The position numbers and the translations under genes were made by a program. A stretch of 56,722 bases of DNA, taken from a virus. Lineage: Duplodnaviria > Caudoviricetes. Below are positions 5,241 to 47,900 of the stretch, piece by piece. The notes under the pieces are model-generated. The model was not told where the DNA came from, did no database searches, and worked only from the letters and a program-made list of their open reading frames with translations. The stretch spans positions 1 through 56,722 of the IMG/VR virus record IMGVR_UViG_3300042558_002627. One strand, written 5' to 3'. The stretch's first letter is position 1, and each line of letters starts with the position of its first letter.

Positions 5241-5251
5241 TATAATGTATT

Positions 5252-5764: not shown

Positions 5765-6048
5765 TGAGCTGTTCTACTACCATAGAAATAACTGAGGATA
5801 TGAATCCTGAAGTTGCATGCTTTATTACTTTAGTATGGCAGTCACAATGTGACTTTGCTCAATGTGTACAGTCTTATTTAACTCAAATGCAGTTTGGAAT
5901 TTTTAATTGCGAAGCATTAGAAAATTTAAAAAATAAAAGAAGAGCATTAGAAATACTTAACTGTTACGATGTTAGAGATATTCCTAATGATACTACAGAG
6001 TACAACTTCTTTACATATAATCAAATGAAAAAACTTTTAAACTCATAA
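5764..6048 (+). CDS. Small Cys-containing structural protein (possible second tail hub subunit)
   Basis: 94 aa, TAATG-coupled to the upstream gene. Confidence 0.4.
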   Translation: MSCSTTIEITEDMNPEVACFITLVWQSQCDFAQCVQSYLTQMQFGIFNCEALENLKNKRRALEILNCYDVRDIPNDTTEYNFFTYNQMKKLLNS

Positions 6049-16338: not shown

Positions 16339-17162
16339 TGTACGCAGGGAAAACAGTTTCATATAAAGCAATCATTGATAAGGCCATTAGAGATTTTGGC
16401 TTTAACTACGATATCCACGAAGAGGAAGGAGTAGAGTGGTTGGCAGAATTCATGGCACATACTAATGTAGGAGTGACTATGGAGGAGAAAATTGCTTATA
16501 TCGAAGTCTGTGATGCTCGCGGAGATTTACCTTTTGACCTTTACAAGATTGGCCAAGTAGCTCACGTAGAAGGAGTTATGACTATCGAAGATGCAGAATG
16601 TGGTAAAGGAAGAATGTATCCAATGCGTTGGAAAACAGATTACTTCCACAAAAGATATCACAAAGATACTCGTGACTATACTACAGAAGCTAGAGAAACT
16701 TATACCGTTGGACAAGGATATATTTTCCCGTCAATGGACAAAGGAATTGTAGCAATGTCATACAGTGCAATACCGACCGACGAATGTGGCTATCCTACTA
16801 TTCCTGCAGAGCAACAATGGATGGAAGCAGGAGCTCACTATATTGCTCACAAGATTGCTAGAAAATTATGGTTAAGAAATGAACTTGCTGGTGATAAATA
16901 TCAAATTATTGAAAGAGATAGAGATTGGTATTTTGCACAAGCAGTTAATCATGCTAAACAATGGAACGGCGTAGACGAAGCAGAAACAGTGAAAAATTCT
17001 GTAGTAAGAACTATTCCTGATCTACAGGCGCATGCTTCTTTCTTTGCAAATATGCAGTTGCCAGAGCAACGTAAATTTAGACCTAAAGCAGGAATTGGTT
17101 TAGTGTCTACAATCAATGTTATAACACAAAATACTCAAGGTAGTAATCCAGCAACATCATAA
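16338..17162 (+). CDS. Tail tubular / ring protein (P22 gp4-like position)
   Basis: GDLPFDLYKI, MSYSAIPTDECGYPTIP, RDWYFAQA; immediately precedes the muzzle gene as in crAss-like phages. Confidence 0.65.
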   Translation: MYAGKTVSYKAIIDKAIRDFGFNYDIHEEEGVEWLAEFMAHTNVGVTMEEKIAYIEVCDARGDLPFDLYKIGQVAHVEGVMTIEDAECGKGRMYPMRWKTDYFHKRYHKDTRDYTTEARETYTVGQGYIFPSMDKGIVAMSYSAIPTDECGYPTIPAEQQWMEAGAHYIAHKIARKLWLRNELAGDKYQIIERDRDWYFAQAVNHAKQWNGVDEAETVKNSVVRTIPDLQAHASFFANMQLPEQRKFRPKAGIGLVSTINVITQNTQGSNPATS

Positions 17163-29670: not shown

Positions 29671-32600
29671 ATGGCAAAAAAACAAGTTCCTGTAGTAGTA
29701 CCTACTAGTCCACGACACGACATGATCCAAAAAATTGTGGATCAAAAAGTGGATAAGACTTTAGGGTTTAATCAAGAAGTAGTTGATAAATTAGGTGTAG
29801 GAGAATCAGGGGAATACTCAGGACTTCAAAAAATCTATAAACAAAAGAATGCTGATATTTTTGATCCTTATGAGGATTATGTAGATAGAGGGACTTTACA
29901 TGGAGGACAATTTTCCATGGAAGAGTTGGGAAAAATTCGTGCAGAAAATCAATCTAATTGGGAACAAGCAAGACATGCTGTAGGCAGAGTAGCGGTTAAT
30001 ATAGTTCCTCAAATTATTGGAGGACTTTCCTCAATGGTTGATGTACCTGGTTATTTTAGCGCAGAAGAAGCTGCTAATAATCAATTAGTTAATTGGGCAC
30101 AAGATCTTAAAAAAGAAGTAGACAACGATTGGTTTCCTATTTATGAAGAAAACCCTGGACAATCTATGAATTTATCAGATCCTGCTTGGTGGATGTCTCG
30201 TGGTTCTGGATTAGTAGAATCCATAGGATCATTTGCTGTAACAGGTATGGTTGGAGGTAAAATTGCGTCTACTGTACTAGGAGGAGTAGGAAAACTTACT
30301 AGAGGTAAAGATTTAGCTCGTGCTGTTCTTGGAGCAAATAAGTCACAAAGATTATTAGGAGGAGCAGAAGCACTTACTAATGCTACCATGATGAATCAAG
30401 CTGAAGCAACTATTTCAGCAACTCAAGTATTTAATGATACTTATAAAGCACGTTTAGCTCAAGGATGGGATGCTCCTAAAGCTAAGCAAGCAGCGGCTGA
30501 AGCTGCTGCTACAACAATGAATATCAATAAAATTAATATTCTTTTAAATCTTTCATCTGCTGCTGCATTCCTTAAACCTATACAAGGAGGAAGTAGAAAT
30601 TTAGTAAAGCTTACTTCAGGTTTAGGAAAAATTACTGAACTAGCAAAAGAAGGAGGACAAGAAAGTCTTGAAGAACTTATCAATTTAGTTGCAGAAAAAG
30701 CTGGTACAGCTAAAGGTAGAGGAGAAAAGTATACAATGAAAAATGCCCTAGAAGATATGGGCAGCATGGAAGGTTTTGAAGCAGCTTTTCTTGGAGCTCT
30801 TGGGGGTATAGGTCAAAAAGGAATTATTAATGCTACTGAGTATTCTAAATACGGTGCAGGAAATACTAAAGATGCAGAAGGAAATCGTATTAGTAAAGTA
30901 GAGTACGAAAGAGGACAATATGCTAAACAACAAGAAGTAATTAATGAACTTAAAGAAAAAGGAGTTAATGTTACTGATGTAATGAAAAATTTCAAGGACA
31001 ATTTATTGTTCCAAGAAAAATTAACGGAAGCTGAAGAAAAAGGAGACCAAGCTGAAGTAGATAAATTAAAAGAAGAGTTGTTTGAAAATCAAGCAATTAA
31101 AGCTTTTCAATCTGGTACTACCGAAGTATTAGAAAATTTATACAGAGCAGAAGCTGAAAGAAATCCAGAAGAAGTGGGGCAGGATCATATTGATCGAGCT
31201 AACGACGCTTTAGTTCAGCTTAAACAATTAGAATCTATTTACAATAACTTTGAAGGATATGAAAATGTAGATGAAATATTCTTCAACCGTGCTAATAAAA
31301 GTAGAGCAGATCGTAATCTTAAATATGTTGAGGGATTAAAAAAAGAAAGTGATTTTCAATTAAGTAAAGACCTTCATTCAATTGCTAAAAAATATTCATA
31401 CGAAAGAGAACGTCCTATTCTTATTAAAGAAAATGGAGAAGTAGTAAGAACGGAAATAGCGACTGATACAATTCCTCTTTCATATTCTATGTCTAATCTT
31501 GATGAAAATCAAGGACATACAGAAGCTGAGCAAAAAATTTATGATAAGTTTTTAGCAGAAGTTAAAGCATTACCATCTTATAAAAACTCTACAAGTTACG
31601 GAGAAACAGTAGACAAGATGCAGAACTTAGTTACTACTGCTGATCAAGAGTTTGCTGAAATTACTAGTAAAAAATATCAAATTACATTTGCTGAGAAAAA
31701 AGCAAAAGAAGCAGAGAAAAAAGCTGCTTTTGAAGCAATTAGCAGAAGTACTTCAATGGCTGAAGTAGAAAAACTTCGTGATGCTTTTGACGATCCTATG
31801 TTAAAGAAAGCTGCAGAGAATAAATTAGCAGATTTAAAAAAAGCTAATGACATTGCAGCTAAGCAAAAGCAAACAACTTTTGTAGTACAAACATTTAATG
31901 ACAAGATTAAGAATGCAACCAAAGATCAATTAGAACAGTTGCGTACAGAAATTGAAGAGGCAGAGTTATCTCAGAATCATAAGACAGATTTAAATCTAGC
32001 TTTAGATAAAAAGATACGTGCACTAAATGGTGAAGAAACAGAAGAAGATCTAGCAGAGGATGCAGAAGAAGATAATCCTTTAGCAGATGTAGATTCTCGA
32101 ACTCCAGAAGAAATTGCGGCTGAGGTGGAAAAAGAAAACGCTAGTTTTGACACTACTCTTCCTAAAGATTTACCAAATCCAAATACAGAAAAACAAGATG
32201 TAGAAGGAGAAGTAGGAGAAGCTGCTGTTAATTTAGCTCAAGAAGATAAAACATTAGTTATCGGCGAAGATGCAGAAGGTAACTTAATTTATAGCTATGA
32301 TAGAAGTTCAGAAGGATATAATCGTGCTGCGTATTTATCTAAAGAGTTCAATCAAAAAGAAGTTCTTGGAATTGTTTATCGTAGTGACATAGACAATACT
32401 GTAGATAATTTAGAATTATTAGATCCAGATTACTTAAATGCGGGAGCAGAACTAAACCTACAGGTTGATTCTGAGTACGCAGGAGAAAAATATGATCCTA
32501 CTTCTAATACCCGAGAAAAAATTTCTTGGTCAATGCGAGAAATAGAATTACAAAAACAAGCTGATGCTCAAGGAATTCTATTAACAAGTTTACCTGAATA

Positions 32601-35600
32601 CATCGCTGAGGTTCCTATTAAAGTAACTGATAAAGACGGTAATACAGTATTCTATGTACACGACAATGCATGGTATAGAGCAGAAAACTTAAATGCTACT
32701 GCTGAAGAAATTGTTGAAGATAAAGCTCGTAACTTTAAAATCCGCGAGACTATTGTCAAAAAAAATGAACCAGTTAAATCTAAAGTACAATACAAAAGCT
32801 TTGGTAAATTATTTAAAACTTTTGACGGAGAATCTCTTCCTGTTTCTATAACAATGCCTGATTCTAAGTTAATTTTAGCAGTCGGACGTGACGGTGCATT
32901 TGAATTACCTGGTAATGCTAACAAACTATTAAATGGCGGAACTATTTTAAATAGCCCAGTATCTGAAGGTAGATTATATGCTATCGTCAAAGTAGGCCCT
33001 AAAGATTACATGCCAATTCCTTTAGAAAGAAAACCTATTTCTAAAGAAGTTATTAATACAGTAATGTTTGCAATAGAAGCGCATTTGACTGGTGATCAAG
33101 AAAATCCTATAGTAAAAGCTATTAGAGAATCTTCATTAAGTTTAGACATTACTACTACTTCAGGTTTAGCAGAATATTTAAATCAATTTATTTACCTATT
33201 TCCTACTCAAGGACCTGCAGGTTTAGAAAATTATTTACTTCGTGGGGGAGGCCAAAATACATTAAAATCTAATATGCCTTTGATCAGTGTTACTGCAACA
33301 GGAATCGAATTCGGTCGTCCTGGTGTTAACATGGGATCTTATGTAGATAAGAACGGTAATAAAGTTACTAAGTGTGCTATTACAGTTTCTGCTAACTTTA
33401 AATCTAAAGGTGGGCAAGCTACTAATCAAGCAGGTTTAGATAAACTACGTGCACTATTAGAAGATCCTAGATATACTCCTCTTGCAAATGCAAGTAGAAA
33501 AGATCTAGCTAAAAACGCAGATTCAATAATTATTTTAGATGCAGAAGGAAATACTAATACAGTAAAATATCCAGACTTAGTAAAAAATTCTCATCAAACA
33601 AATATCTTATCGATAAATATTGGTACTGAGGAAGAACCTAAGTGGGCTTATACTATCCAGCCTACTATTCTTTTTGATACTGCATTTGCTGGTATAAAAC
33701 CTACTAAGAAAAAAGCAGCTGCTACTCCAAAGATTAATAAAGTTACTCCTGCACAAAAATCTTCTTTAAGATATAAAGGAGTAAACCCTACTGTAGATGT
33801 AATTGTTACTAAGATAATTAACGGTGAGCCTCATGTTTTAATTATCAAAAGAGGAGCCAATGCAAAATCTGAACCTAATAAATTAGCATTTCCTGGAGGA
33901 TTCCACGACACTACTGCAAAAGCAGGTAATAAATGGAAACCTGGTAAAGAGACTGCAGAAGAAGCAGCAATGCGAGAAGTTAAAGAAGAAACTGGTTTAG
34001 ATCTAGAAGGACTTCCTTTAGAACAAGTAGGAGTATTCGATGATAGAACTAGAGACCCTAGAAATTCTAACACTTCTTGGATATCTTCTACTGTATACAA
34101 AGTCACTATCCCTGAAGATTTTTCTGGATCTACTGAAGTATCTGGACAAGATGATGCTCAAGATGCTAGATGGATTCCTGTATCAGAATTAAGTGCTACA
34201 GATAAATCTGAATTTGGATTTGATCATGCTGATATTTTAGAAAGTGAAGGATTAATTTTTACAACTACTGACCTTGAAGCAGAAAAAAAATCTAAAGTAT
34301 CTACCCTAAGAGCAGAAGAGCAAGCAGAATTAACTAAGGCTATCCCTAACATAGATGAGTATAAGGTTGATGGTGAGATAGATAAGGAATCTATGCCAGC
34401 GGATGTTAGAGCTAAGTATAATAAAATTTATGACAAGTACGATAAATTAATAGCCCCATTACTTCCTAAAAAACCTACTGCTGAACAAGAAGTAGAAGAA
34501 CTTACAGGAGAAGCATTGATTGAGGCTTATGCCCAAGATATTGCAAAAGGAATTGAAGATAAAAGTCAAATTGAACAATACCTTGAAAATTTAAAAGAAG
34601 GATTAGTTCCTGAAGCAGATGCTGTAGATATGGGATTTAATTCTTTACCAGAAGCAATTGCCTCTTTTGAGAAAGCATTAGAAATTTTTAATAAGAATGA
34701 AGCTGACTCTAAAACTATTACTTTACCAAGTGGATTAAAAGTTACAGTAAATAAAAATACTAAAGACTCTAATCCAATAGGAGAAGATAGTGTTGATGAG
34801 TTAATGACTGCGCTAGATGAAGATCAATTAAAAGAGCAACGTGATGAAATAGATCAAATGCTTATTAGAGGATTAGATACACAAACTCAATCATCTTTAA
34901 TTGCTTATTTGTCTTCAGATATTATTCAAGCAACTCTTAGTGCTAAAGAAGTAGGCGGACTTAAAAGTGTAAAAGTTAAACCTATATTAGACAAGCATTT
35001 AGAATCATTAAAAGAATTATCTAAGTTTTATAAAGAACAAGGATTAGATAATAAAGCAGCACGTCTAGATGCAGTCATTGATCAATTCGATAAAGTTAGA
35101 AGATTAGTAAATCAAAACATGAGTCTTTTATCTACAGGAACTGTAAAAGAGGATATCGAATTAGATGCTAATGAAGATGCGGGAGGATTAGTACGCAACA
35201 ACTATACAGATGATTGGGCATTTACAGTGAATCCTAAATCTACTACTTCAGAAGATTTGAAAAAATTCTTCAGTATGATTCAAGCGCAAGATGAAAATGG
35301 GCCTATAGTTAACTTACTAGGACTCCCAGAAATTCTTCCGTATGATACTGTATATAATACTTTAAAAGGACTTTTATCAAACAAGCCTGCAGACTACGAC
35401 TTAATGATTAAGATTCTAGAATTAAATACAGAGAAATTCCCTTGGATTAACTCTGTAATAGATCTTTTAGAAAAAAGTAATACTCCTGATAAAATTAAAA
35501 ATGAGTTTGTTTCAGGAATGGTGGGCCATAATATTCACATGCAGTTTGTTATGTGGAGTAAAGATCGTAATGGAAACTACTCTTTACAAAAATGGTCTAG

Positions 35601-38277
35601 TAACTCTTCAGCAGTAGAAGAAAGACTACGTGCTATATGGAATTCTAACTTAAAAGGTGTAGGTACTAGAAGTAATTTGATTACAATAAACGAAGATGAT
35701 GAATACATTTTTGATAAGACTGTAGGTAATACACTAATTGCACAAGCAGCAGAATTTGCTAAAAACCCAGAAGCAGTAACTAACGAAGAATTAGCTAATT
35801 GGTTAGGACTTTTTGGAATTGTAATCAGTGATAAAACTTACGAAGATTTACGTAAAGGTAAGTTTAATAATAAGGGTCGTAAAAGTTGGAATGCATTATT
35901 CACTGGTGGAAAAGGTTTAGTTAAAGCATTAGCTAGAACTTTAGATGCAACACTACAAGGAGAAGTATCTTTTGATGATGCTAAGATTCTAACAGATTCT
36001 GTAGTAAAAGCATTGGCTAAATTAGAAGCTAGCAATAACCTAAGTGTTTATAGCAACTCTTTCCAAGCAGGTGGAAAAACTGTGTACTCTTACGGAAATA
36101 ATAATTTCCTTGTAAATAGAATGCGCGATCTTACAGCATACAATAATGAAACAGGGACATTTGTTAATCAAGATTTGATCGATAAATTACAAAATATTTC
36201 CTTTAGTAAAAATAGTAGTTGGCTTCAAGATCTAACCGAAGATGGGGCATTGGGTGATACAATGCGTAATACTTTCAGAATAAACTATTTATCCCTAGAA
36301 GCGCTTAAAAAAGCATTTACTAAATCTCAAGATAACAGAAAGCTAAATAACTTAACTGCTGCAGAGCACGAAGTAATTAAAATTGCTTTCTTCCAAAATG
36401 TTTCTGGAGATACTCTTAATGGAGAAGATAGAAGAGCTGTAGACTTCTTTTATCCTACTATGTCTGATAAGACTACTATGTTGACTATCAGCGCTTTAAC
36501 TCGACAATTAGTTTTAAGTGATGGAGAAATTTCGGATAAAAATCTAGAAACATTATACGATACAATTGTTGTTCCAGAAATAAACAGAATTCGAGATAAG
36601 CAATCTGATAACATTAAAGGATACGAACCTAACTATTTCTATTTCTTCCACAGCCTTAATTCTTTAATGGTTCCTATGGGAATAGACGTTAATGGAAATG
36701 TTACTGAGAAATCATTCCTAGATATTGTTAAAGATAAAGACAATACTTTATATTCTCCTGAAGTTAAGCAGGCAGTAATGGAAGAAATCAAAAGTATTTT
36801 TGATGGATTACTAGAAAAGAAATTAGAAGACTGGGGTAAACTAGGAATTGGATTAAAGCTTACAGATAAAAATAATAGAGTAACTGATAACTATACTTTC
36901 TTAGATAAGGAGTATATGTCTAAAGTAGCTAAAGTAGGTAAAGGAGTTGACAAGGTTAGTTACGCAGCAATGGATTATTTATTCAATAATTTAATTGCCA
37001 ATGCTGAAGCTTATAAATTATTTGCTGGAGATCCTGCTTTATATGCAAAGTTTAATAGCAAGAAAAGCTTAGAACAAAACCTAGAAGAAACTTTTACTAA
37101 TATTGGTAAACGTCTTGCTGGAGATATTGCACCAGGTATGGAATTAGCAGACAGTGCTAATAATAATTACTATCAAGTATTTATGCAGGATAAAAAGATT
37201 GATAGTAATAATGTAAAAGACACTGCTCAAAAAGAATACTTTAGTAAAATCATGAGTAAGTTTGGAGAAAACTACTCTGGAATAGAAGGTTCCGATGCTC
37301 AGGAATATACTACTTGGAAAGAGCACTTATATGTAATGCAGCAATTAGGTCGATTGACTAAAGCTCAATATGATAAAATTTATAAACAATTAGAAGGACA
37401 GTCTAAAGGAGATTTTAGAAAATCTAATATACTTTCTTATGATGATATAAATATTGTCATGCAGCCTTTAAAACCTGTATATGTAGGCAACACTGCTTCT
37501 ATAGAAGATAATGCAGACCGTAGAGTTTATATTAAGTCTTCTAGTTTTCCACTACTTCCCCAATTAACTTTAGGAATGCAAATAAATAAAATTCGTAAGG
37601 GATTAGAAGCATTTGAAGAAGAAATGTCGGGTACTACTAAAGATGGTAAACCTGCATTTGTTAGAGCTTCTTTTGGAACTGCAAATAAAGTAGGGGCTGT
37701 TAAAAATGCTGTAGAAGTTTTTGATAATAATGGTAATGTTGTTGATAACTTTAAAGTAAGCCTAGATAATACGCTATTACTTTCTAGATCAAACTTCAGA
37801 ATTCAGCAAGATGTTCCTTACAAACGTGAAAAAGATGCTGTAAATATTGGAACACAAGAACGTAAGCTATTATTTGTAAATACATTAGATCTAGAAATTG
37901 AACCAGGTGTTAAAGGTCAAGATTTAATGGATCTTTATAATCAAAACTATCAAGATTTATACGAATATGCTTACGAAGAGTTATCTAAGAAACTTGGTCT
38001 AGTTAAAGAAATAACTAGTACAAAAGACTTAACATCATTGTTAGCGATGCCATCTTCAGATATTTTTGAAAGAACTTCTGAATTAGAAAAGCAACTTAAA
38101 AGCGTTAGTCCTATTAAGAAAGCAGAACTGCAACAAGATTTTGCAGAGGAAATAGGGGATGATAACTTAGAAAGAGTTAACTTTATAAACAAAAATTTCG
38201 ACAATATAGTTGAAGCATTGATGTCATCAGACATGGCAATCTTCAAAGACGAAAATAATGAATTCAAAAAATGTTAA
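29671..38277 (+). CDS. Giant virion protein: N-terminal membrane/helical region, Nudix hydrolase domain, and N-terminal (beta-like) half of the virion RNA polymerase
   Basis: 2868 aa; Nudix box ETAEEAAMREVKEETGL (~33950-34000); crAss vRNAP-type motifs PTMSDK, LFAGDPALY, KRLAG, SDAQEYTT (~37291), QPLKPVYVG, YIKSSSFPL, RIQQDVP. Confidence 0.75.
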   Translation: MAKKQVPVVVPTSPRHDMIQKIVDQKVDKTLGFNQEVVDKLGVGESGEYSGLQKIYKQKNADIFDPYEDYVDRGTLHGGQFSMEELGKIRAENQSNWEQARHAVGRVAVNIVPQIIGGLSSMVDVPGYFSAEEAANNQLVNWAQDLKKEVDNDWFPIYEENPGQSMNLSDPAWWMSRGSGLVESIGSFAVTGMVGGKIASTVLGGVGKLTRGKDLARAVLGANKSQRLLGGAEALTNATMMNQAEATISATQVFNDTYKARLAQGWDAPKAKQAAAEAAATTMNINKINILLNLSSAAAFLKPIQGGSRNLVKLTSGLGKITELAKEGGQESLEELINLVAEKAGTAKGRGEKYTMKNALEDMGSMEGFEAAFLGALGGIGQKGIINATEYSKYGAGNTKDAEGNRISKVEYERGQYAKQQEVINELKEKGVNVTDVMKNFKDNLLFQEKLTEAEEKGDQAEVDKLKEELFENQAIKAFQSGTTEVLENLYRAEAERNPEEVGQDHIDRANDALVQLKQLESIYNNFEGYENVDEIFFNRANKSRADRNLKYVEGLKKESDFQLSKDLHSIAKKYSYERERPILIKENGEVVRTEIATDTIPLSYSMSNLDENQGHTEAEQKIYDKFLAEVKALPSYKNSTSYGETVDKMQNLVTTADQEFAEITSKKYQITFAEKKAKEAEKKAAFEAISRSTSMAEVEKLRDAFDDPMLKKAAENKLADLKKANDIAAKQKQTTFVVQTFNDKIKNATKDQLEQLRTEIEEAELSQNHKTDLNLALDKKIRALNGEETEEDLAEDAEEDNPLADVDSRTPEEIAAEVEKENASFDTTLPKDLPNPNTEKQDVEGEVGEAAVNLAQEDKTLVIGEDAEGNLIYSYDRSSEGYNRAAYLSKEFNQKEVLGIVYRSDIDNTVDNLELLDPDYLNAGAELNLQVDSEYAGEKYDPTSNTREKISWSMREIELQKQADAQGILLTSLPEYIAEVPIKVTDKDGNTVFYVHDNAWYRAENLNATAEEIVEDKARNFKIRETIVKKNEPVKSKVQYKSFGKLFKTFDGESLPVSITMPDSKLILAVGRDGAFELPGNANKLLNGGTILNSPVSEGRLYAIVKVGPKDYMPIPLERKPISKEVINTVMFAIEAHLTGDQENPIVKAIRESSLSLDITTTSGLAEYLNQFIYLFPTQGPAGLENYLLRGGGQNTLKSNMPLISVTATGIEFGRPGVNMGSYVDKNGNKVTKCAITVSANFKSKGGQATNQAGLDKLRALLEDPRYTPLANASRKDLAKNADSIIILDAEGNTNTVKYPDLVKNSHQTNILSINIGTEEEPKWAYTIQPTILFDTAFAGIKPTKKKAAATPKINKVTPAQKSSLRYKGVNPTVDVIVTKIINGEPHVLIIKRGANAKSEPNKLAFPGGFHDTTAKAGNKWKPGKETAEEAAMREVKEETGLDLEGLPLEQVGVFDDRTRDPRNSNTSWISSTVYKVTIPEDFSGSTEVSGQDDAQDARWIPVSELSATDKSEFGFDHADILESEGLIFTTTDLEAEKKSKVSTLRAEEQAELTKAIPNIDEYKVDGEIDKESMPADVRAKYNKIYDKYDKLIAPLLPKKPTAEQEVEELTGEALIEAYAQDIAKGIEDKSQIEQYLENLKEGLVPEADAVDMGFNSLPEAIASFEKALEIFNKNEADSKTITLPSGLKVTVNKNTKDSNPIGEDSVDELMTALDEDQLKEQRDEIDQMLIRGLDTQTQSSLIAYLSSDIIQATLSAKEVGGLKSVKVKPILDKHLESLKELSKFYKEQGLDNKAARLDAVIDQFDKVRRLVNQNMSLLSTGTVKEDIELDANEDAGGLVRNNYTDDWAFTVNPKSTTSEDLKKFFSMIQAQDENGPIVNLLGLPEILPYDTVYNTLKGLLSNKPADYDLMIKILELNTEKFPWINSVIDLLEKSNTPDKIKNEFVSGMVGHNIHMQFVMWSKDRNGNYSLQKWSSNSSAVEERLRAIWNSNLKGVGTRSNLITINEDDEYIFDKTVGNTLIAQAAEFAKNPEAVTNEELANWLGLFGIVISDKTYEDLRKGKFNNKGRKSWNALFTGGKGLVKALARTLDATLQGEVSFDDAKILTDSVVKALAKLEASNNLSVYSNSFQAGGKTVYSYGNNNFLVNRMRDLTAYNNETGTFVNQDLIDKLQNISFSKNSSWLQDLTEDGALGDTMRNTFRINYLSLEALKKAFTKSQDNRKLNNLTAAEHEVIKIAFFQNVSGDTLNGEDRRAVDFFYPTMSDKTTMLTISALTRQLVLSDGEISDKNLETLYDTIVVPEINRIRDKQSDNIKGYEPNYFYFFHSLNSLMVPMGIDVNGNVTEKSFLDIVKDKDNTLYSPEVKQAVMEEIKSIFDGLLEKKLEDWGKLGIGLKLTDKNNRVTDNYTFLDKEYMSKVAKVGKGVDKVSYAAMDYLFNNLIANAEAYKLFAGDPALYAKFNSKKSLEQNLEETFTNIGKRLAGDIAPGMELADSANNNYYQVFMQDKKIDSNNVKDTAQKEYFSKIMSKFGENYSGIEGSDAQEYTTWKEHLYVMQQLGRLTKAQYDKIYKQLEGQSKGDFRKSNILSYDDINIVMQPLKPVYVGNTASIEDNADRRVYIKSSSFPLLPQLTLGMQINKIRKGLEAFEEEMSGTTKDGKPAFVRASFGTANKVGAVKNAVEVFDNNGNVVDNFKVSLDNTLLLSRSNFRIQQDVPYKREKDAVNIGTQERKLLFVNTLDLEIEPGVKGQDLMDLYNQNYQDLYEYAYEELSKKLGLVKEITSTKDLTSLLAMPSSDIFERTSELEKQLKSVSPIKKAELQQDFAEEIGDDNLERVNFINKNFDNIVEALMSSDMAIFKDENNEFKKC

Positions 38278-38279
38278 TA

Positions 38280-38768
38280 ATGGAAAAATTACTTACAGAA
38301 AACGAGATTAAATTTCTCAATATGTTCGGTAAATTAGAGTTGACTGCGTCACATGTGTATCAGCACCTTACTAATCGAATGAAGACTTTAGGTTACTTCG
38401 GCGCAGAAAAATTCTTTTTATCAGAATCTTTAGACGAAAGAAAGCATTACAATACAATAGAACAATTTATGAACGACATGAATTGTGAGCTTTCTGTAGA
38501 GTCTTTAGACCCTGTAACTAGCTCTGTAGCTGGTATTGGAGACGCTTTAGATATGGCTTACAAAATGGAAGCGGATCTTTTAGCAGCTTATGAAAAAGTA
38601 GCCAATTCCGAAATATCAAGAAAAACGTTAATTTTGCTTCAAGACTTTATTATGATACAAGTATCAGCAGTAGGGGAATATGGAGATTTAATTAACCGTT
38701 TAAAACTTACTGATAACATGTTGCTGTTTGATGCAGATATGTTAGAAAGAAGTGAGAACGAAGGATAA
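38280..38768 (+). CDS. Ferritin-like (non-haem ferritin family) protein
   Basis: ELTASHVY...GYFGAEKFF..ESLDERKH...ALDMAYKME...LQDFIMIQ ferritin four-helix pattern; probable start ATG 38280 (TAATAATG). Confidence 0.75.
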   Translation: MEKLLTENEIKFLNMFGKLELTASHVYQHLTNRMKTLGYFGAEKFFLSESLDERKHYNTIEQFMNDMNCELSVESLDPVTSSVAGIGDALDMAYKMEADLLAAYEKVANSEISRKTLILLQDFIMIQVSAVGEYGDLINRLKLTDNMLLFDADMLERSENEG

Positions 38769-38782
38769 TAAAAAACAACAAC

Positions 38783-41700
38783 ATGTCAAATTGTAAGTAT
38801 TTTGTCAATGGTGATTGGGTAACTGAGAACCAATTAAAAGAGCTTTTGAATGCTGGGCTATTAGATAATTTAGTTTCTAATGGAACTGTAGAAGTAAAAG
38901 GCTTTAAAGTAGACAGCTCTAAGTTGCTTAAAGCAGAAACTACTAAAGTTACTAGTGATAATATTCCTGCAGTAACATTGGCAAACATATTAGCAAATGA
39001 GATTAAAAGCCGACAAGGCTATACTCTTAACATGTTGTCCGCATTAGAATTAACTAATCCTACTGCAGAAGAAAGAGCTAATGGGGTAGAACCAGATTTC
39101 AAAATTCCTTTATGGGCATCGCCGTATGCAAATAAATTTGAAAGTTTACTTACATCTTTAGTAAGTAACAAAATAGTTAAGCAAAAATTCCCAGGAAATT
39201 CTTACATCTTAGGTTCAGAAGAAGGGTTCCGAGTTAAAGAAGGGGACGAAGCAGCAGGAGAATTAGGAAAATCTAACATCGTATTTACTTCTAACTTTGA
39301 TCCAGAAAAAGGATTACAGCCAATGCGTTGGGATTTCGAAAATAAAAAGATTCTTCCTGCGCAAATAATGATTCCATTTAAATTCCGCGACGAATCAGGA
39401 GAAATTCTTTCTTTGAAAGATTTTACTACACTAGAAGAGGGAGGAAGAATGGTATTAGATACTACCAAAATTCCAGACAAATTACTTCAACTATTTGGCT
39501 TCCGTATTCCTACACAAGAGCGTAACTCTATGGCCGCTGTAGAAATAGTAGGCTTCTTACCTGAAGCATCAGGAGATCTTGTCTTAGCGCCAAGAGATTT
39601 TACTAAGCAAATGGGATCCGATTTTGACGTTGATAAATTGTACACATATATGTACAATCATTTCTACGATAATAAAACTGGGAAACTACATACCAACTTT
39701 GTTTCTGATAAAAAGAAAATCAAAAGTTTCATAGAAATTACAAAACAAAGTATTGAGGATATAAAAGAAGAATTTAAACTTTCTAAAGAGCAGAAGAAAA
39801 TTTTAAATGCTTACATCCAAGAGGCTAATGTTAGTTTAACAGATCAAGATTATTCAGAAAGACGTTCTAAAGGTGAGGAAACAGAATCTGAATTATCTAG
39901 AATGGCTGCAGAAATTTTAAATTTCTCACTTAAAGGAGAACTAAAAGAAAAGTTAGACTACAATATCAATCAACTATCGATATTAAGTAGATCTTACAAA
40001 GCTTCTCGACAAAATAATATCTTAGATATTCACCATAGAATTATGACCTCTTCTAATCCTGAGATCATATCTTCTATTATGGCCCTAGATTCCTTTGGAG
40101 AATTTGAAAAATTAGCTAAGGATATCAACACCTTAAGAAATACTGACGGCGCAATTCCAATTATTCTTTCTGACGTCTATCAAAGAACTAAATATATTAA
40201 TGCAACTGCAGGTAAAAATGGTGTAGGATCTTTCTCACTAGATTCTACGTTTAATGCAACTGCACAAGGTAAACAACTTACTATACAAAATTTATCTGCA
40301 GAAAATAAAGAATTATTATTTGGTACTGTTCAAGAACCTAGAACTCCTACAGCAGCAGAAATTTTAGAAGCTAATGACCCTATTGCTACTTTTGGAAATG
40401 TAGTTTCTAAAGGAGATTTATCTAATAAATATACTCTTCGTTCTCAAGCAATTATTAATCTTGCTAAAGCAGAAAAAAGAGAATTAACAGATAAAGAAAA
40501 AGAATCTTTAAAATACAAATCTACTATCATACGAGCTCTTCAATCAACGGCAGTGGATAATGAGAAAGCACAGATCCTTGATAAATTAAATATCAATGAT
40601 GAAACTTTTGATGCTATCCGTGCAATGGCCCTATTAGGGTTTGAAGAATCAGAAATAGTAGGATTAATAACTCAAGATATTATCTGGGAGTTTATTGATA
40701 AATTGAAAGACGCGCGATCTTCCTTGACTTCTTATAATGCAAATGCAAGTGCAGATATATTCCAAGAATTAATTGCTAAGTACGATCCTAGTAAATCCTA
40801 CGCCGCACTTGATGCTGATAGAATAGATTCTTATTCTGCTAAATCTGGAGTAGAGCTTATTGCTAATATTGGAAATAAAACTCTTGTGCCTCTTAAAGAA
40901 GGTACTACTCCTGATTTTCATCTAGAGCAACTAGCATTATTAGATAAATTCTTAAAGTTAACAGCTACAGGAAAAGACATCAAAGTATTGCAGTCTTCTA
41001 TTAATACTGAGTCTAGCGGTATTCCTAAATCATTATTGGAGACAAAAACTAAAGTAGAACAAATAGAACGTTTGCCTTACTTAAACATTTTCAATGCCGA
41101 TAAATTATTAGGTGAATACGAGGTAACAGGATTAAGTAATCCTACTACTATTAATGGATACGCTGCGTATTACGGAGCAATGTTTGCTAATAAAATATAC
41201 GATAAGTATTTCCCATATAAACAAACAGGGTTTAATGCGGTAGTAGGAGAGATTATGTCTCATACTCCAAAAGGAGATACTATAAGTTTACCTAAAAAGA
41301 CTACACTTCAGCAAGAGATTTTTGATCAAGTAAAATCTTATCTGTATTCGAATACTAATACTAATTTATTTGGAGATAATCCTGATATAGAAAGACATAG
41401 ATTATTCATTGATACTAAACAAAATAAAAGTTTAGCATCTATTTTAAATGAACTATCTAATACAACTTGGTTCCAAAAAAATGGATTCTTGAATAAACTT
41501 TCGTTTGACATCAATAAAAATGGTACTATTTCTAGAATTAACTTTGAAGCAGCAGCTGGAGAAAATCTAGATGAAAGAAATATCTATGATGGATTTAATT
41601 ACTTGCTTAGTAAAAACTTTGCAATTGGAAACTACAACGGTATAGATTATACTAGTCGTATTTTAGCACAAGAGCTTGTTGCAGCAGCTTTCTTAGAAGG

Positions 41701-44700
41701 AGGAAATCAAGGTGCTAAACAATATTTAAAATACGTTCCTGTAGCTTATTTAAAATCATTAGGATTTGGTGAATATTTACAAGGAATTCCTTTTGATTTC
41801 CAAGAAACTTTCTTTGGAAATATAGTAGAAGAAACTGTTATTTATAATCAACCGTCTACTTTTACTCGTCAATATTTTCAAAATAACCCTGATCTAGTTA
41901 AAACAATAAACTTATCAGACATAGAAAATAATAACAATAAAATTCCTGATTCTTTTACTTTAAATAAAGAAGCATTAGCAGATAATTTTGTAGATACTAT
42001 TGACCCTGCAACAGGAGAAGCTACAAAAGAACAAGTACATTTCCTATCTATTTACGATAGTAAGTTACCTTCTAACTATGCATTATACGAATTTGACAGT
42101 GTGTCTCGTGTATATCGTAAAATTTCTGTTTTATCAGGTAGTTACGGATTTGTTGGGTATAACTCACAGTCTAAAAATAGCATGCCTACTGAGATTAAGA
42201 ATTTATCTACAGCAGCCCCAGTAGAACAAGGAGCACCTGGATATACAATAAATAATATTCCAGTAACTCCTTCTAAAAAATTCGACCTCAATGTAGTTAA
42301 TAATCCTACTACTCCTACAACTACTGCAGGATTACCTATCAACAGAAAATTATCTGGTACTAAAGAAGCTTTAGATGATTTATTAAATAATCTAGAAACT
42401 TCTAATGAAGTGTCTACTTTAAATACGCAGTTAATTCAATTGATTCGTACTTTAGAATTACCTCAAAACTTCAAAGTTGTATATGATGATACTTTAGAGT
42501 CTAGAGGTAATTATAATTCCGAAGAATCAGTTCAAACTTTGACTATAAATTTAAAAGATCCTAACAATAAAAAAGTAAATGATTTAGCTACAGCAGTTGT
42601 ACATGAGCTTATACATACGTTTACCGCTGATAGTATTCAAAAGTATGAAGATGGAGACTTGGATAAATTGTCTGCTAAAACTATTGCAATTATACAGCAA
42701 TTAGAGTCTTTACAAAAATTATATATTGATGAGCTAGTAGCTAAAGAAGGACCAGAAGGATTAAAAATATTTGAGAAAAAATATTTTGATTGGAAAGCAG
42801 GATTAGCAGATGCTCCTAAAGTATCCAAAGAACAAATAGCTAAATACTACGGAGCTATTAAGTTGACAGAGTTTGTTACAATGGCTTTAACTGATGCAGA
42901 ATTTCAAAAGCATTTAAATGATATTACTGATGAAACAGGTTTATCAATGTGGGAGCAATTAAAAGAGTTGCTATCTGACTTATTAAATGCATTAGGACTT
43001 GATATTAAACCTGGATCTGCTTTAGCAACTGCTATTAAAGATAGTATGGATTTAATTAAAGCTAATCAAGATGCTTTAAAAGAAAACAATATTGAAACTA
43101 AGCAATTTATAGAGTTTGGTAATACTTATAGATTCCAAGTAGATGGTAACGGTAAAGTAATTAAAGCAGAATATGCTCAAGGTAACGGTGTTTACAAAGC
43201 GATGAACGCTAAAAATAGCCAAAAGAAATATGACGAATTAAAAAATAAACCTGAAATACAAAAAACAGCAGAAGCTAAAATTACTGAAGATACTATTAAT
43301 AAATACGAATTATTCCCAGGAGTATTTGCAAATGCTGGGCAAACTGAAGCTATTGATAAATTAAATGACTTCTTAAAATCAGACGAAAAAGCTTTCTTAT
43401 TAGAAGGTAAAGGAGGAACAGGTAAAACTACTATTATCAAACAAGTAATTGCAAGTTCTGCAATTAGTGGTAAAAAAGTATTAGCAATTGCTCCATCGCA
43501 TAAAGCTAAAAAAGTATTAGCTAGATCTTTAAAAGATTTAGATGTTACTGTTAAAACATTGGCTTCTGCTTTAGCAATTAAACTTGATGAAAGCACAGGT
43601 AAATTTGAACCTGATGAATATGCTAGAAAAAAAGGAAATGTTCCTATTGGAAATGGGCAAATTATAGTTATTGACGAAAGCTCTATGGTATCTGATGCAT
43701 TATTAGCAGAGATTAAACAGTGGGTATCCGCAGGAGCTAAGGTAATCTTTATGGGTGACCGCGCACAATTACCTCCAGTAGGACAAGAAAAAGACAGTGA
43801 TGTTTTTGGATTAAAAAATCGATACGAGTTAACTGAAAAAATGCGTCAAGCAGCAACTTCTCCAATTATAAATATTGGAAGCAAGATTGCAGCAAACGCA
43901 GAAAACGATACTAACAGAGTAGCTAATCCTATTACATCTTTAGACCGTGTTAATAGTACAGATGTTGTAAGTGGCTCATCAATTACTTGGGAAAGTTCAG
44001 AAAGCGCTGCGTTAGATCAATTTGTAGAAGATTTGCAAAAAGCTGAAGGCGATGTAAACTTTGCTAAAATAGTAACGTTTAACAATCAAAACCATAAGAG
44101 CCCTCAAAGTGTTAAAAATCTTAATACTAAAGTTCGTCTTAAATTATTTGGAGAACGTGCATTAGGAGAAAAATTTATTCCTGGAGAAATTTTAACAGCT
44201 TATGATTCTTACAATCCTACACAAGGAAAAGAAGAAATAGATATAGTATTCTTTAATAGTGAGGATATGATTGTTGAAGCAGTTAAGACTATACAAGGCC
44301 GCCCAGTGACAGTAGAAGTATTTTCAGGAGCAAAGGGAAGACGCTCTGCATCTTTCAATTTTGATGTAGAAATGCTTACTTTACAAAATGATGAAGGCAA
44401 AACTATAACTAAATTTGGTAGTCCTGTAGAAATTCCTGTAATTGCAGAGTCTAGTAAAGAAGAATACTCAGCAGTTTTGAATAAATTATGGTCAACTGAT
44501 CGACAAATGGCTTATGCATTGCAAGCTAAATTTGGAAATTTAGAATATGGATACGCAATAACTTCTCACAAAGCTCAGGGCTCTACTTATACTAATGTTT
44601 ACGTGATGGAAGATAACATCATGGGGCCAAGTAACGGTGGTAGCATCAAAGCTAAGAGTCAATCATTATACGTAGCAGTCTCTCGCCCTACTACTAAATT

Positions 44701-44956
44701 AGTAATGGTATCTAGTAAAAATGACGAAGCTCCTATAAAAAGAACAGGCTTAGATTTATCTAAACTTTCTGGTAAATTAGAAGATTACCAAACTTTCCCA
44801 ACATCAAGTTACGGAGAAGAAGAAGATAGAATGAGTAATCGTCCTAGCCAGGATGATTATGAAGCTTATCAAAGAATGATGGGAGACGAGCTATTATCAG
44901 AATCTCCGATTAATAGTGATAACTTGAGAAATTATTTGTTAATTTGTGGTAAATAA
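38783..44956 (+). CDS. Virion RNA polymerase catalytic (beta'-like) half fused to a zincin-like protease domain and a Dda/RecD-like SF1B helicase
   Basis: GFRIPTQ...GSDFDVDKL catalytic DxDxD (39620-39634); AVDNEK; HELIH (42602-42616) with downstream EFVT; Walker A GKGGTGKTT, IDESSM, GDRAQLPPV, YAITSHKAQGSTY, LYVAVSRP. Confidence 0.85.
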   Translation: MSNCKYFVNGDWVTENQLKELLNAGLLDNLVSNGTVEVKGFKVDSSKLLKAETTKVTSDNIPAVTLANILANEIKSRQGYTLNMLSALELTNPTAEERANGVEPDFKIPLWASPYANKFESLLTSLVSNKIVKQKFPGNSYILGSEEGFRVKEGDEAAGELGKSNIVFTSNFDPEKGLQPMRWDFENKKILPAQIMIPFKFRDESGEILSLKDFTTLEEGGRMVLDTTKIPDKLLQLFGFRIPTQERNSMAAVEIVGFLPEASGDLVLAPRDFTKQMGSDFDVDKLYTYMYNHFYDNKTGKLHTNFVSDKKKIKSFIEITKQSIEDIKEEFKLSKEQKKILNAYIQEANVSLTDQDYSERRSKGEETESELSRMAAEILNFSLKGELKEKLDYNINQLSILSRSYKASRQNNILDIHHRIMTSSNPEIISSIMALDSFGEFEKLAKDINTLRNTDGAIPIILSDVYQRTKYINATAGKNGVGSFSLDSTFNATAQGKQLTIQNLSAENKELLFGTVQEPRTPTAAEILEANDPIATFGNVVSKGDLSNKYTLRSQAIINLAKAEKRELTDKEKESLKYKSTIIRALQSTAVDNEKAQILDKLNINDETFDAIRAMALLGFEESEIVGLITQDIIWEFIDKLKDARSSLTSYNANASADIFQELIAKYDPSKSYAALDADRIDSYSAKSGVELIANIGNKTLVPLKEGTTPDFHLEQLALLDKFLKLTATGKDIKVLQSSINTESSGIPKSLLETKTKVEQIERLPYLNIFNADKLLGEYEVTGLSNPTTINGYAAYYGAMFANKIYDKYFPYKQTGFNAVVGEIMSHTPKGDTISLPKKTTLQQEIFDQVKSYLYSNTNTNLFGDNPDIERHRLFIDTKQNKSLASILNELSNTTWFQKNGFLNKLSFDINKNGTISRINFEAAAGENLDERNIYDGFNYLLSKNFAIGNYNGIDYTSRILAQELVAAAFLEGGNQGAKQYLKYVPVAYLKSLGFGEYLQGIPFDFQETFFGNIVEETVIYNQPSTFTRQYFQNNPDLVKTINLSDIENNNNKIPDSFTLNKEALADNFVDTIDPATGEATKEQVHFLSIYDSKLPSNYALYEFDSVSRVYRKISVLSGSYGFVGYNSQSKNSMPTEIKNLSTAAPVEQGAPGYTINNIPVTPSKKFDLNVVNNPTTPTTTAGLPINRKLSGTKEALDDLLNNLETSNEVSTLNTQLIQLIRTLELPQNFKVVYDDTLESRGNYNSEESVQTLTINLKDPNNKKVNDLATAVVHELIHTFTADSIQKYEDGDLDKLSAKTIAIIQQLESLQKLYIDELVAKEGPEGLKIFEKKYFDWKAGLADAPKVSKEQIAKYYGAIKLTEFVTMALTDAEFQKHLNDITDETGLSMWEQLKELLSDLLNALGLDIKPGSALATAIKDSMDLIKANQDALKENNIETKQFIEFGNTYRFQVDGNGKVIKAEYAQGNGVYKAMNAKNSQKKYDELKNKPEIQKTAEAKITEDTINKYELFPGVFANAGQTEAIDKLNDFLKSDEKAFLLEGKGGTGKTTIIKQVIASSAISGKKVLAIAPSHKAKKVLARSLKDLDVTVKTLASALAIKLDESTGKFEPDEYARKKGNVPIGNGQIIVIDESSMVSDALLAEIKQWVSAGAKVIFMGDRAQLPPVGQEKDSDVFGLKNRYELTEKMRQAATSPIINIGSKIAANAENDTNRVANPITSLDRVNSTDVVSGSSITWESSESAALDQFVEDLQKAEGDVNFAKIVTFNNQNHKSPQSVKNLNTKVRLKLFGERALGEKFIPGEILTAYDSYNPTQGKEEIDIVFFNSEDMIVEAVKTIQGRPVTVEVFSGAKGRRSASFNFDVEMLTLQNDEGKTITKFGSPVEIPVIAESSKEEYSAVLNKLWSTDRQMAYALQAKFGNLEYGYAITSHKAQGSTYTNVYVMEDNIMGPSNGGSIKAKSQSLYVAVSRPTTKLVMVSSKNDEAPIKRTGLDLSKLSGKLEDYQTFPTSSYGEEEDRMSNRPSQDDYEAYQRMMGDELLSESPINSDNLRNYLLICGK

Positions 44957-44962
44957 AGAAGT

Positions 44963-47900
44963 ATGTCAATAGCATGTCCTAATAAGAATTCTAAAGAGTG
45001 GAAAACTCTTGTAAAGCAGACAGGAGAACAGTTAGCAAATCTGGCTTTTGTATCAAATGAATATAGAATTCCCGATGTAAAAAGTTCTACAGAAATTAAA
45101 AAGGCTATCAAGTTCCAATCTAAAGTGGAAAATTTTGCAGGAGTAGCTTCAAGACTAAGAAAGTATAACCAACAAAACGGTACTTCTCATTACTTTACTT
45201 TTAAAAATGTTTGGGGTAATACTTTTGAACTTACTTTAAAGTACAATTATTTACCAGTCAATTTAGAAAAACAAAGACAGAGAGAAGCGGCTAAAGGGGA
45301 CCCTTTATATGCTATTAACGATTTTGATGCACCTGCTTTTAATTACATGTACCCAGGAAGTAGTAGCCAGATTAGACCTAGCTCTAACATTGATGAATTA
45401 ATTCCTGGTGCAGAGACTCAAGTAATTGCTGTAGAAAAATTAAGAAAAGACAAAATAAATACAGCAATAATTAAGCAGCGTCAAGAACTAGCTAATGTAA
45501 AAGATGCTGTAGAAATGCGATCTATTCTCAATAAAATTGAGAGTTTAGTTAAAAGTTTAGAAGGGACTGAATCAATTAGAGGTGCTCAAGAACGGCTACT
45601 ATTAGCGGGTGAAATTAAAGCATTTGAAGAAGTAGAAATTTTTGGAAATTTGCAATTAAAAGAAATTGAGAAATTATTAAATAATCCTGCAATTAGCGCA
45701 GACGATGTTTATTATGCTCAACGTATTATAGATCTTTGGTTAAAAGCTGGAGATTTTTCTACAGACCCTCGTGAACATATTTTCTTAGATGAAGATGAGT
45801 TTAATACTAAGGAAATTCGTTCTAAGTTTAGAGCTCTTGCTGCTACAGCACAAGATCTTCAAAGTAAACTTATTCCTATTCGAGAAGAACATACTACAAA
45901 TTTTGTAAGACAATACACTGATGGCAAATTAACTCAAGAAGAAATCTTTAAGAATATTCGTGATGTCAATAAAGTTGCTGCTATGACCTTAAATTTAAGT
46001 CGTCACGGTGACGCAATGTTACAAGCAGGTTTTGCTGCGGTAGAGGCTGCTAATATTTCCGCACAGCAAGAAGCATCTGAAGTGTGGAAAGAACTAGATG
46101 AACTTACTACAAAATTCTTAAAAAAATCAGGGGGTAATTTTAATATCTTAAAGCAGTTGACTGAAGATGGAAAAGAAACAGGAAGAACTGTTACTCGTTT
46201 TTCTTCAGAATTTTTTGAAACACGTAATTTATTATTAAAAAGAGCCTTTAAAACTGTTGATGCAAAAACTAAAAAAGTTACTAAGAATGCTGAGGCAGTC
46301 AAAACTTTTTTTAATTGGACTAATACTAATACTATTTCTTTTGATCCTAGAATCTTAATAGAAGATAGTCTATTAGATAATAGTATTATGCCAGAAAGTT
46401 TCTTATACAAAAGAGTTACTTATGATGAAGGTAGTCGCCAAAAACATATTGAAGAATTAAAGAAGCATTTAGGAGAAAAAGGATATGAATTCTATATTGA
46501 ACGTGCAAAAGAAAAAATAGAACAATTTAAACTTAGACGTGATGCTGCTTATGAAAGTATGCATTCTAAAAGTGAATTATCTAAAGTCGAGCAAGATGCT
46601 TTATTTGAAAATTGGTTAAGAGAATATTCTCCTTATTGGTCTATGGATATGATGGAAAATCCTACTTCTCGACAAAAAGGAAAAGATTCTTTCTATTCTC
46701 CAAAAGGAATGCGTGAATACATTATTCAAGTTCCTAGAAAATTTACTGCTGAAGGAAATACAAAATGGTACGATAAGAACTACGCTAAGATTGAGGCAGA
46801 TGATGATTTATATGCGTACCATAATTATATGATGAAGACTTTAAATAGCCTTCGTTATATGTTGCCAGAGCAAAAAAGAGCTTTAATGGGAGTAGGTGTA
46901 TTGCCTACTATTCAAAAAAGTTTAATGGACACATTCCAAGAAAAAGGAATGATGATGGGTGTTATTCCTTTTTGGGATAAAATGAAGCAACTTCAAACTA
47001 CTACGGATTTAGCTACAACAGTTTATTCTGATGTAAATCCTTTAACAGGTAGTATTGAAAAGAACATTCAAATTCAATATGTAGAAGATAATCAAGCTAG
47101 AGTAAAAACTTTAGTACGTCAAATGCAAATTAAGCATGAGCAAGAGACAGGAAAACCTGCTACAAATGAGGATAATATTAGATTTACTAAAGAAACCAAA
47201 GATTTTTTATCAAAAGAAAAATCTTGGGATGTTACTAAAATCTTAAAAGCATACTCTTTAAATATTCTTGCATATAAACACAAGTCTTTTATCGAGCCTC
47301 AAATTAAATTACTTGAGCAGGAATTAAAAGCTCGTAAAGAAATAGTAACAAATAAAGCGGGTCAAGCTCAAGTAGATGAATACGGTAAACCTTTAGAAAG
47401 AGAGGGCTTAAATAATCTAAAATCTGCTTGGGATTTCTTTATGGATTCTACTTTTTATGGAGTAGGAGGTCGTAAAGTAGAAGGAGTTACTAAGACTAAA
47501 CTCTATACAGATGCCGAAAAAAAACGTAAAAAAGAGTTAGAAGCTCTTTTAGAAAAGGAAACTGACGAAGAAAGTAAACAATTTTTACAAGGACAAATAG
47601 ATTCTTTAGGAGGATTTAGAACAATAAGTGGTGTAGGTGATACAGCACTTAAATACATGACTCTTAAAGGATTAGGATGGAACTTTTTCTCAGCCTTTTC
47701 CAATATAGGATTTGGTACTATTTCCAATTTAATCCAAGCATCTGATGGTCGAGAATACTCAATGGCAGATATGCGAAGAGCATATATATTAACTTTAAAC
47801 TCAGTTGGAAGAAATTTAAGTTTTAATTACTTAGACGGAGTAAATAGTAATGCCTTAAAAATTAGAACATTAATGGATAAATGGGATTTACTACAAACTT

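Follow-up and report, generated by a model that had tools for sequence, protein, structure and literature searches.

Paired terminal cysteines at the gene boundaries of the giant RNA polymerase cargo proteins of crAss-like phages

Giant cargo genes of the window and their terminal cysteines

The stretch of DNA analyzed here, the 56,722 nucleotides of IMG/VR virus record IMGVR_UViG_3300042558_002627 (positions 1 to 56,722, termed the window), belongs to a crAss-like phage and encodes three giant cargo proteins, P1, P2 and P3, the facing ends of which carry nearly all of their cysteines. The cargo proteins of phages crAss001 and phi14:2 are known to be packaged in the capsid and ejected (PMC10172136; 10.1101/2020.03.07.982082). 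A profile of P2 matched crAss001 gp50 (9.8e-31), and a profile of P3 matched both crAss001 gp49 (1.3e-19) and phi14:2 g065 (3.7e-19). In these comparisons, the P1 profile matched only FpV4 gp32 and the first protein of the Intestiviridae. Residues D280, F281, D282 and D284 of the DFDxD catalytic motif were invariant in the P2 alignment. Searches of PDB sequences with phmmer and with profiles detected only helicase, zincin and 'internal virion protein' matches, the phi14:2 polymerase not being among them. The genes, domains and cysteine codons of the locus are as follows.

29671..38277, plus strand: P1, giant cargo protein of 2868 amino acids (aa) with a match to PHROG 16227; NUDIX domain at residues 1375-1511
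38020..38274, plus strand: P1 tail module, approximately the last 85 residues, ending in Cys 2868
38272-38274, plus strand: codon of Cys 2868 of P1
38280..38768, plus strand: ferritin-like open reading frame (ORF), 162 aa from the second ATG (first ATG at 38271; 38280 is the likelier start)
38783..44956, plus strand: P2, RNA-polymerase-bearing giant protein of 2057 aa
38783..38962, plus strand: P2 head module, approximately the first 60 residues, with Cys 4; not present in fused orthologues
38792-38794, plus strand: codon of Cys 4 of P2
39620-39634: P2 polymerase motif DFDVD, residues 280-284
42602-42616: P2 HExxH motif, residues 1274-1278
P2 residues ~1440-1978: helicase of superfamily 1 (SF1), Dda-like
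44717..44953, plus strand: P2 C-terminal tail, following the helicase domain, with Cys 2055
44945-44947, plus strand: codon of Cys 2055 of P2
44963..49012, plus strand: P3, third giant protein, 1349 aa
44963..45352, plus strand: P3 head domain, residues 1 to ~130; Cys 5 is in the N-terminal coil, ahead of helix 1
44975-44977, plus strand: codon of Cys 5 of P3

Cysteine was restricted to residues 1235 and 2868 (the final residue) of P1, residues 4 and 2055 (third from the end) of P2 and residue 5 of P3, amounting to five cysteines in 6,274 residues. Four of the five lie no more than 5 residues from ends that face each other, exactly at the positions given in the first-pass annotation, which had proposed that P1, P2 and P3 are linked through these residues; the N-terminal end of P1 and the C-terminal end of P3 are without cysteine. 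The other proteins of the window contain ∼1% cysteine (95 of 9,536 residues). All four facing-end cysteines are encoded by TGT. If cysteines were placed uniformly, the probability of at least four of five falling within the four facing 6-residue zones would be ∼1e-9, while with ends at a cysteine rate of ∼1%, a generous null, the probability of all four zones being hit would be ∼1e-5. Both figures refer to the window alone and are post hoc, and the main weight was, therefore, placed on conservation in relatives.

Relatives of P1, P2 and P3 were drawn from a collection of 5.8 billion proteins. The tail (C-terminal) cysteine was detected in 115 of 119 relatives of P1 and in 118 of 120 relatives of P2, and the head (N-terminal) cysteine in 111 of 120 relatives of P2 and 83 of 85 relatives of P3, so that the enrichment of terminal cysteines anticipated for homologues was borne out. 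Every relative without the expected cysteine was either a fused form or truncated at that end compared with the window protein. Interior cysteines amounted to 0.007 to 0.013% in these homologue sets. In the alignments, C2868 of P1 (33 aligned sequences) and both C4 and C2055 of P2 were invariant, while C5 of P3 was the sole invariant residue among the first 160, no earlier column of the full-length P3 alignment being invariant. No conserved histidine or second cysteine was found near the terminal cysteines in the alignments of the three proteins, each end exhibiting a single invariant residue.

Cysteine pairs at gene junctions and their absence from gene fusions

A census of junctions, defined as adjacent ORFs of at least 600 aa, was performed on 47 IMG/VR loci obtained with the P3 profile together with loci L005 and L006; loci L001-L004 were excluded, being the same contigs as L019, L014, L018 and L026. 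Both a tail cysteine (0 to 3 residues from the C-terminal end) and a head cysteine (residue 3 to 6) were present at 45 of the 46 junctions, none had a single cysteine and one, in L041, had neither, in agreement with the predicted co-occurrence of a C-terminal cysteine with an N-terminal cysteine in the next protein. In L041, a fused gene that would otherwise be continuous is frameshifted by a 13-nucleotide (nt) tandem duplication (4680-4790). In L066, P1 is broken by one in-frame TAG (15587-15592) with no cysteine on either side, and the real P1/P2 boundary of this locus has the usual pair. Junction gaps ranged from -8 to 505 nt with variable frames, and every head cysteine was preceded by a start codon 2 to 5 codons upstream. 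Only 26 interior cysteines were detected in the 173,090 residues of the census, compared with the ∼1% of the other window proteins, and a further cut, ∼1,000 aa upstream, was present in L044, L045, L052 and L059. Judged from these sequences, the tail and head cysteines very probably act together at each boundary. The comparative cysteine counts support the initial proposal in two respects, namely that neighbouring proteins are functionally linked in pairs where they meet and that their order is P1-P2-P3, the chemistry of a linked trio being a separate matter that is weighed below. By eye, a lysine or arginine lies within positions -3 to +2 of the tail cysteine in 41 of the 45 tails, a soft point in proteins that are rich in lysine.

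Junction cysteines had been expected to be absent where the genes are fused, and this was found for both P1-P2 and P2-P3 fusions. Of 32 P1-P2-fused proteins, only that of gut phage cr10_1 had a cysteine 150 aa or less from the fusion point, at a distance of 117 aa. None of the six full-length P1-P2 fusions (3,744 to 4,866 aa) had a cysteine near the fusion point; five contained a single cysteine, at the C-terminal end, and P0316 had one additional interior cysteine. The P2-P3 fusions of L037, L040, L042, L050 and L053 (3,668 to 4,454 aa visible) contained no cysteine at all, while in L045 and L059 the sole cysteine retained was the head cysteine facing an upstream tail cysteine. When gene states were placed on a polymerase-core tree (44 rows and 965 columns, quick IQ-TREE run, with long-branch caveats for five rows), at least three changes were required for the P1|P2 split state and at least four for the P2-P3 fused state. 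The RNA polymerase cargo is in effect one polypeptide of ∼6,000 to 7,500 residues that is carried by one to three genes (perhaps four), with the places of the cuts differing between lineages.

Split forms carry additional sequence at the cut, a feature overlooked in the first-pass annotation. Where fused orthologues have a linker of ∼10 to 15 aa at P1|P2, the split forms have a ∼85-aa tail and a ∼60-aa head, and at P2|P3, as observed in another clade, ∼75 aa and ∼30 aa of the split forms correspond to ∼18 aa in the fused forms; by extension from that clade, the tail of the window P2 is probably also specific to the split form. As a short linker replaces the tail and head in the fusions, both ends leave the same point of the fold. 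Structure prediction with AlphaFold2 (AF2) gave a confident alpha/beta domain for the P3 head (residues ∼11 to 130; mean predicted local distance difference test [pLDDT] score of 87.3), for which Foldseek detected no fold match in the PDB at an E value of ≤0.001. When P2 residues 1 to 230 were modelled alone, pLDDT scores were 48 to 65 for the head and ∼80 for residues 61 to 130. Heads can be swapped, as P0196 and P0197 are P2 homologues with a P3-type head. Profile comparison gave no sign that the P2 and P3 heads share an ancestor (hhalign E value of 0.079 over 18 columns, not significant), nor that the P1 and P2 tails do, for which no alignment was obtained.

The first-pass annotation had treated P1 and P2 as directly consecutive genes, overlooking the ferritin-like ORF that sits between them (Pfam PF00210, 40.9 bits versus a cut-off of 24.5) and whose first ATG (38271) overlaps the P1 cysteine codon. 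Each of the 12 window-type split loci in the census, and L066 as well, had a ferritin-like gene between P1 and P2. No such gene was detected in the fused-gene loci of the census, save for one weak match in L049, and the gene was absent at P2|P3 and at every junction of the cultured phages. In the gaps of L014-L032, it accompanies the P1|P2 split as one cassette consisting of tail module, ferritin ORF and head module. An intein or split intein at P1|P2 was considered and rejected, since the insert is an independent ORF that has its own start and stop codons in a different frame and that matches only Ferritin and Rubrerythrin.

The cysteine-pair pattern spans the Steigviridae, Suoliviridae, Intestiviridae and FpV4 and was also detected in a relative of p-crAssphage. 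The positions in individual phages are as follows.

crAss001 gp47: only cysteine at 2339 of 2341
crAss001 gp50: cysteines at 5, 1334 and 2404 of 2412
crAss001 gp49: only cysteine at 5
phi14:2 g067: only cysteine is the last residue
phi14:2 g066: cysteines at 3 and 2179 of 2180
phi14:2 g065: cysteine at 3
FpV4 gp32 (4287 aa): only cysteine at 4286
FpV4 gp33: cysteines at 3 and 1461
DAC15: pattern as in crAss001
Gut Suoliviridae cr118_1, cr50_1, cr6_1 and cr7_1: fused giant protein with a terminal cysteine, followed by a protein with a cysteine at 3-4
Intestiviridae LMMB, cr3_1 and crAss002: single junction, pair present

No partner gene was located for cr10_1, and in cr128_1 the third gene is interrupted by the end of the locus. 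The pair of crAss002 is present only if gp33 starts at an internal Met located 32 codons into the annotated ORF. This Met is followed by Ser-Cys (L064, 9270-9370), matching how the LMMB and cr3_1 orthologues begin, and the annotated start of gp33 seems, from these sequences, to be 32 codons too far upstream. The late genes of cr6_1 and cr7_1 (L061 and L062) contained 9 to 148 in-frame stops per gene under translation table 11, as expected for stop-codon recoding, and the terminal cysteine pattern holds in these genes.

The DFDxD motif lies at residue 280 of the window P2 versus residues 1361-1483 of the middle protein in crAss001, phi14:2 and DAC15 (gp50, g066 and gp076), and the P2 profile alignment begins at residue 1308 of crAss001 gp50. 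A cysteine pair is present at each cut although the cut sites are non-homologous. In both crAss001 and DAC15, the second and third genes are oriented oppositely to the first (gp50 and gp49 versus gp47 in crAss001), and the pair is retained. Outside the Crassvirales, weak relatives of the C-terminal part of crAss001 gp49 were detected among the virion proteins of a Leptolyngbya phage and of two Cellulophaga phages of 145 kb, phi17:2 and phi4:1 (H138, H142-H145).

Possible roles of the cysteine pairs

On balance, the terminal thiols probably form disulfides that join the cargo proteins head to tail into one linear thread. The docking, the disulfide chemistry, its timing, a 1:1:1 stoichiometry and a role in ejection and release are what we infer from the comparisons above. 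The tail module of an upstream piece would dock with the head module of the downstream piece inside the infected cell, and once the virion is in an oxidizing setting the two thiols would form an inter-chain disulfide, making P1-P2-P3 one unbranched thread with overhangs of no more than ∼5 residues. This thread would then pass through the portal and tail partly unfolded and in a fixed order, and the reducing cytoplasm would open the links and free the parts. The near-lack of other cysteines would avoid cross-links or loops capable of knotting the thread. As each link would be between an extreme C-terminal end and an extreme N-terminal end, the polymer would be practically unbranched, and an unbranched link combined with loss of other cysteines is what passage of a partly unfolded thread through the tail would be expected to require. 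It is quite possible, if a little short of probable, that the whole polymerase cargo (∼700 kDa in crAss001) is joined post-translationally into a single covalent thread that is re-stitched at every cut, such that the gene can be freely cut or fused, with the reducing cytoplasm providing a timed release of the polymerase, helicase, protease and NUDIX parts.

Several observations weigh against a disulfide-linked thread. Many of the census loci are close relatives and are not independent, L030-L032 having the same end strings. The giant proteins of gut Suoliviridae and Intestiviridae carry 5 to 13 interior cysteines each, a looser version of the 'no other cysteine' rule, and the tail cysteine is 8 to 10 residues from the end in crAss001 gp50 and cr10_1 gp32. 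Four P1 homologues are without a tail, two of which (P0273 and P0321) stop close to the fusion point; the contigs of these two were not found in a scan of metagenomes, while scans of viral sequences gave other relatives or nothing. The P3 head folds confidently on its own and so may serve a purpose other than docking. Gut crassviruses live without oxygen, and oxidation in nature is therefore uncertain for these phages; the disulfides of crAss001 were observed in purified virions (PMC10172136).

A covalent link might instead serve stoichiometric packaging, keep the polymerase inactive in the virion or act as a redox switch for turning it on in the cell, rather than mediate threaded ejection. 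The same comparative evidence (the junction census, the fusions and the changes on the tree) applies to such a link, and the Drobysheva preprint discusses fused polyproteins as well as virion polymerase activation (10.1101/2020.03.07.982082). This explanation was considered unlikely, as it explains neither why the cysteines of nearly all junctions are at most ∼5 residues from the ends nor why other cysteines have been purged, both of which are explained by the requirement for a linear thread.

Sharing of a metal ion by the two thiols, or another thiol chemistry, is a poorer fit still. Such a site had been allowed for in the first-pass annotation, a ferritin-like gene is located exactly at the P1|P2 cut in the window clade and the multi-cysteine ends of a second group of ORFs in the window (4413-6048, described below) would suit metal sites. 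Two ligands are, however, too few for a stable site and the three or four conserved ligands of such a site were not found, while no ferritin gene is associated with P2|P3 or with the junctions of cultured phages. A disulfide thus fits better than a metal site because there is only one invariant residue per end. That each terminal cysteine binds a third partner, such as the portal, the capsid interior or another cargo protein, is very improbable. The crAss001 tail does contain several inter-protein disulfides (PMC10172136), but the free N-terminal end of the first protein and the free C-terminal end of the last protein never carry the cysteine, and the gain and loss of tail and head cysteines go together. 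A nucleic acid or translation effect (readthrough of the P2 stop, ribosome hopping between cysteine codons or start/stop overlap) has a negligible likelihood: P2 and P3 share a frame across a TAA and two codons in the window (44954-44965), the four cysteine codons are identical and the cysteine codon of P1 is overlapped by the first ATG of the ferritin ORF, but the shared P2/P3 frame is not conserved in relatives (for example, L003, L004 and L005), gap lengths and frames vary between junctions, a start codon precedes every head cysteine and the opposite-strand (convergent) genes of crAss001 and DAC15 exclude readthrough, hopping and overlap constraints as the cause.

No description of terminal cysteines on crassvirus cargo was found by full-text literature searches or in the examined passages of PMC10172136, 10.1101/2020.03.07.982082, PMC11445570 and PMC13434306 and the abstract of PMC13576161, supplements, subscription papers and the published Nature version of the phi14:2 work aside; the word cysteine has 0 occurrences in the main text of PMC10172136 and none in the preprint 10.1101/2020.03.07.982082. 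The crAss001 virion contains inter-subunit disulfides in the tail hubs, in ring proteins R1/R2 and in a gp57 dimer (Bayfield et al. 2023, PMC10172136). The virus order is the same and the cysteines are likewise on separate gene products, but those disulfides staple a fixed structure whereas the cysteines described here are on ejected cargo, one per end and at the extreme termini. According to that report, the crAss001 cargo must partly unfold to exit, and how and in which order the five cargo proteins leave the capsid was stated to be an open question (PMC10172136).

Suppression of cysteines in the ejected proteins of Schitoviridae (N4 gp50; DEV gp71-gp73) has been ascribed to passage through the periplasm (PMC11445570). 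These cargos resemble those of crassviruses in including a giant virion RNA polymerase nearly devoid of cysteine, for which the accepted rationale, as given in that text, is unfolded passage past the periplasmic disulfide machinery. N4-like cargo, as described there, has no conserved cysteine and a single-polypeptide polymerase, whereas crassviruses retain exactly the boundary cysteines. The N4 virion RNA polymerase (vRNAP) is described in another report as a single 'beads-on-a-string' giant protein, for which partly unfolded passage has also been proposed, and how the three crassvirus proteins relate to this polymerase was stated there to be an open question (PMC13434306). A linked crassvirus trio would be equivalent to one N4-like thread, and some crassviruses do encode one ORF. 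The continuity of the N4 vRNAP is due to peptide bonds, whereas that of the crassvirus cargo would be due to side-chain links.

In AB toxins such as diphtheria toxin and the clostridial neurotoxins, an inter-chain disulfide is opened by cytosolic reduction after translocation. The likeness to a disulfide-linked cargo is that the bond keeps two chains joined while they cross a narrow channel in unfolded form; the toxin chains, however, derive from a nicked precursor and their cysteines are internal, whereas the cargo proteins are translated separately and the cysteines are terminal, and there is no homology. Modular polyketide synthase (PKS) and nonribosomal peptide synthetase (NRPS) subunits have head-to-tail docking domains, and T4-like phages have 'genes in pieces' made by insertions. 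In these systems, as at the cargo junctions, terminal add-on modules restore the order of, or contact between, the pieces. The PKS/NRPS contacts are non-covalent, in contrast to the added cysteine pair, and the inserts of T4-like phages carry a homing endonuclease, in contrast to the ferritin-like gene of the P1|P2 insert.

Crassviruses are the most abundant human gut phages. If the disulfide-linked thread is correct, it would represent a general route by which proteins can be delivered in a set order via a narrow channel, as well as the first known ejection cargo concatenated by side-chain bonds, and re-linking would explain the repeated splitting of the giant genes without functional loss. 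The strict rule of a pair at every boundary and none when fused provides a concrete hypothesis for the cultured phages crAss001, DAC15, phi14:2 and FpV4. This rule may also serve as a marker for separating true gene boundaries from frameshifts and mis-set starts, as in L041, L066 and crAss002 gp33.

Neighbouring genes and a second cysteine pattern

The genes upstream of the giant genes encode, in order, a major capsid protein, ring proteins 3/4, 2 and 1, a muzzle protein, a cargo-protein-1-like protein and a 913-aa protein. The window exhibited the crassvirus cargo synteny, with matches to PF24228, PF25702, PF25710, PF25731 (7e-132) and PF25725 (2.5e-25). The three genes preceding P1 are as follows.

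17162-21421: muzzle protein (PF25731, 7e-132)
21421-26850: cargo-protein-1-like protein, 1809 aa, one cysteine, none terminal
Just upstream of P1: 913-aa protein, no cysteine

An invariant HExxH motif of the zincin type is located in P2 in the window clade, in the third protein in phi14:2 and cr7_1 and in the first protein in Intestiviridae and crAss001. A protease domain has been assigned to gp65 orthologues in preprint 10.1101/2020.03.07.982082. A lysine-rich stretch directly following the initial Met was common in cargo proteins and P1 homologues (window genes starting at 21421 and 29671; L007, L010 and L011) and may be a leading or packaging signal.

A second set of cysteines at the facing ends of consecutive ORFs was observed in the tail-fibre region (4413-6048).

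4413-5240: ORF with a Cys-Gly cluster at its C-terminal end
5252-5764: ORF with a weak collagen-like match and three cysteines in its first 7 residues
5764-6048: ORF with a cysteine at residue 3

These multi-cysteine ends would, from their sequences, suit a shared metal site or several disulfides. All three end-cysteine features were retained in each of eight IMG/VR relatives (L068-L075).

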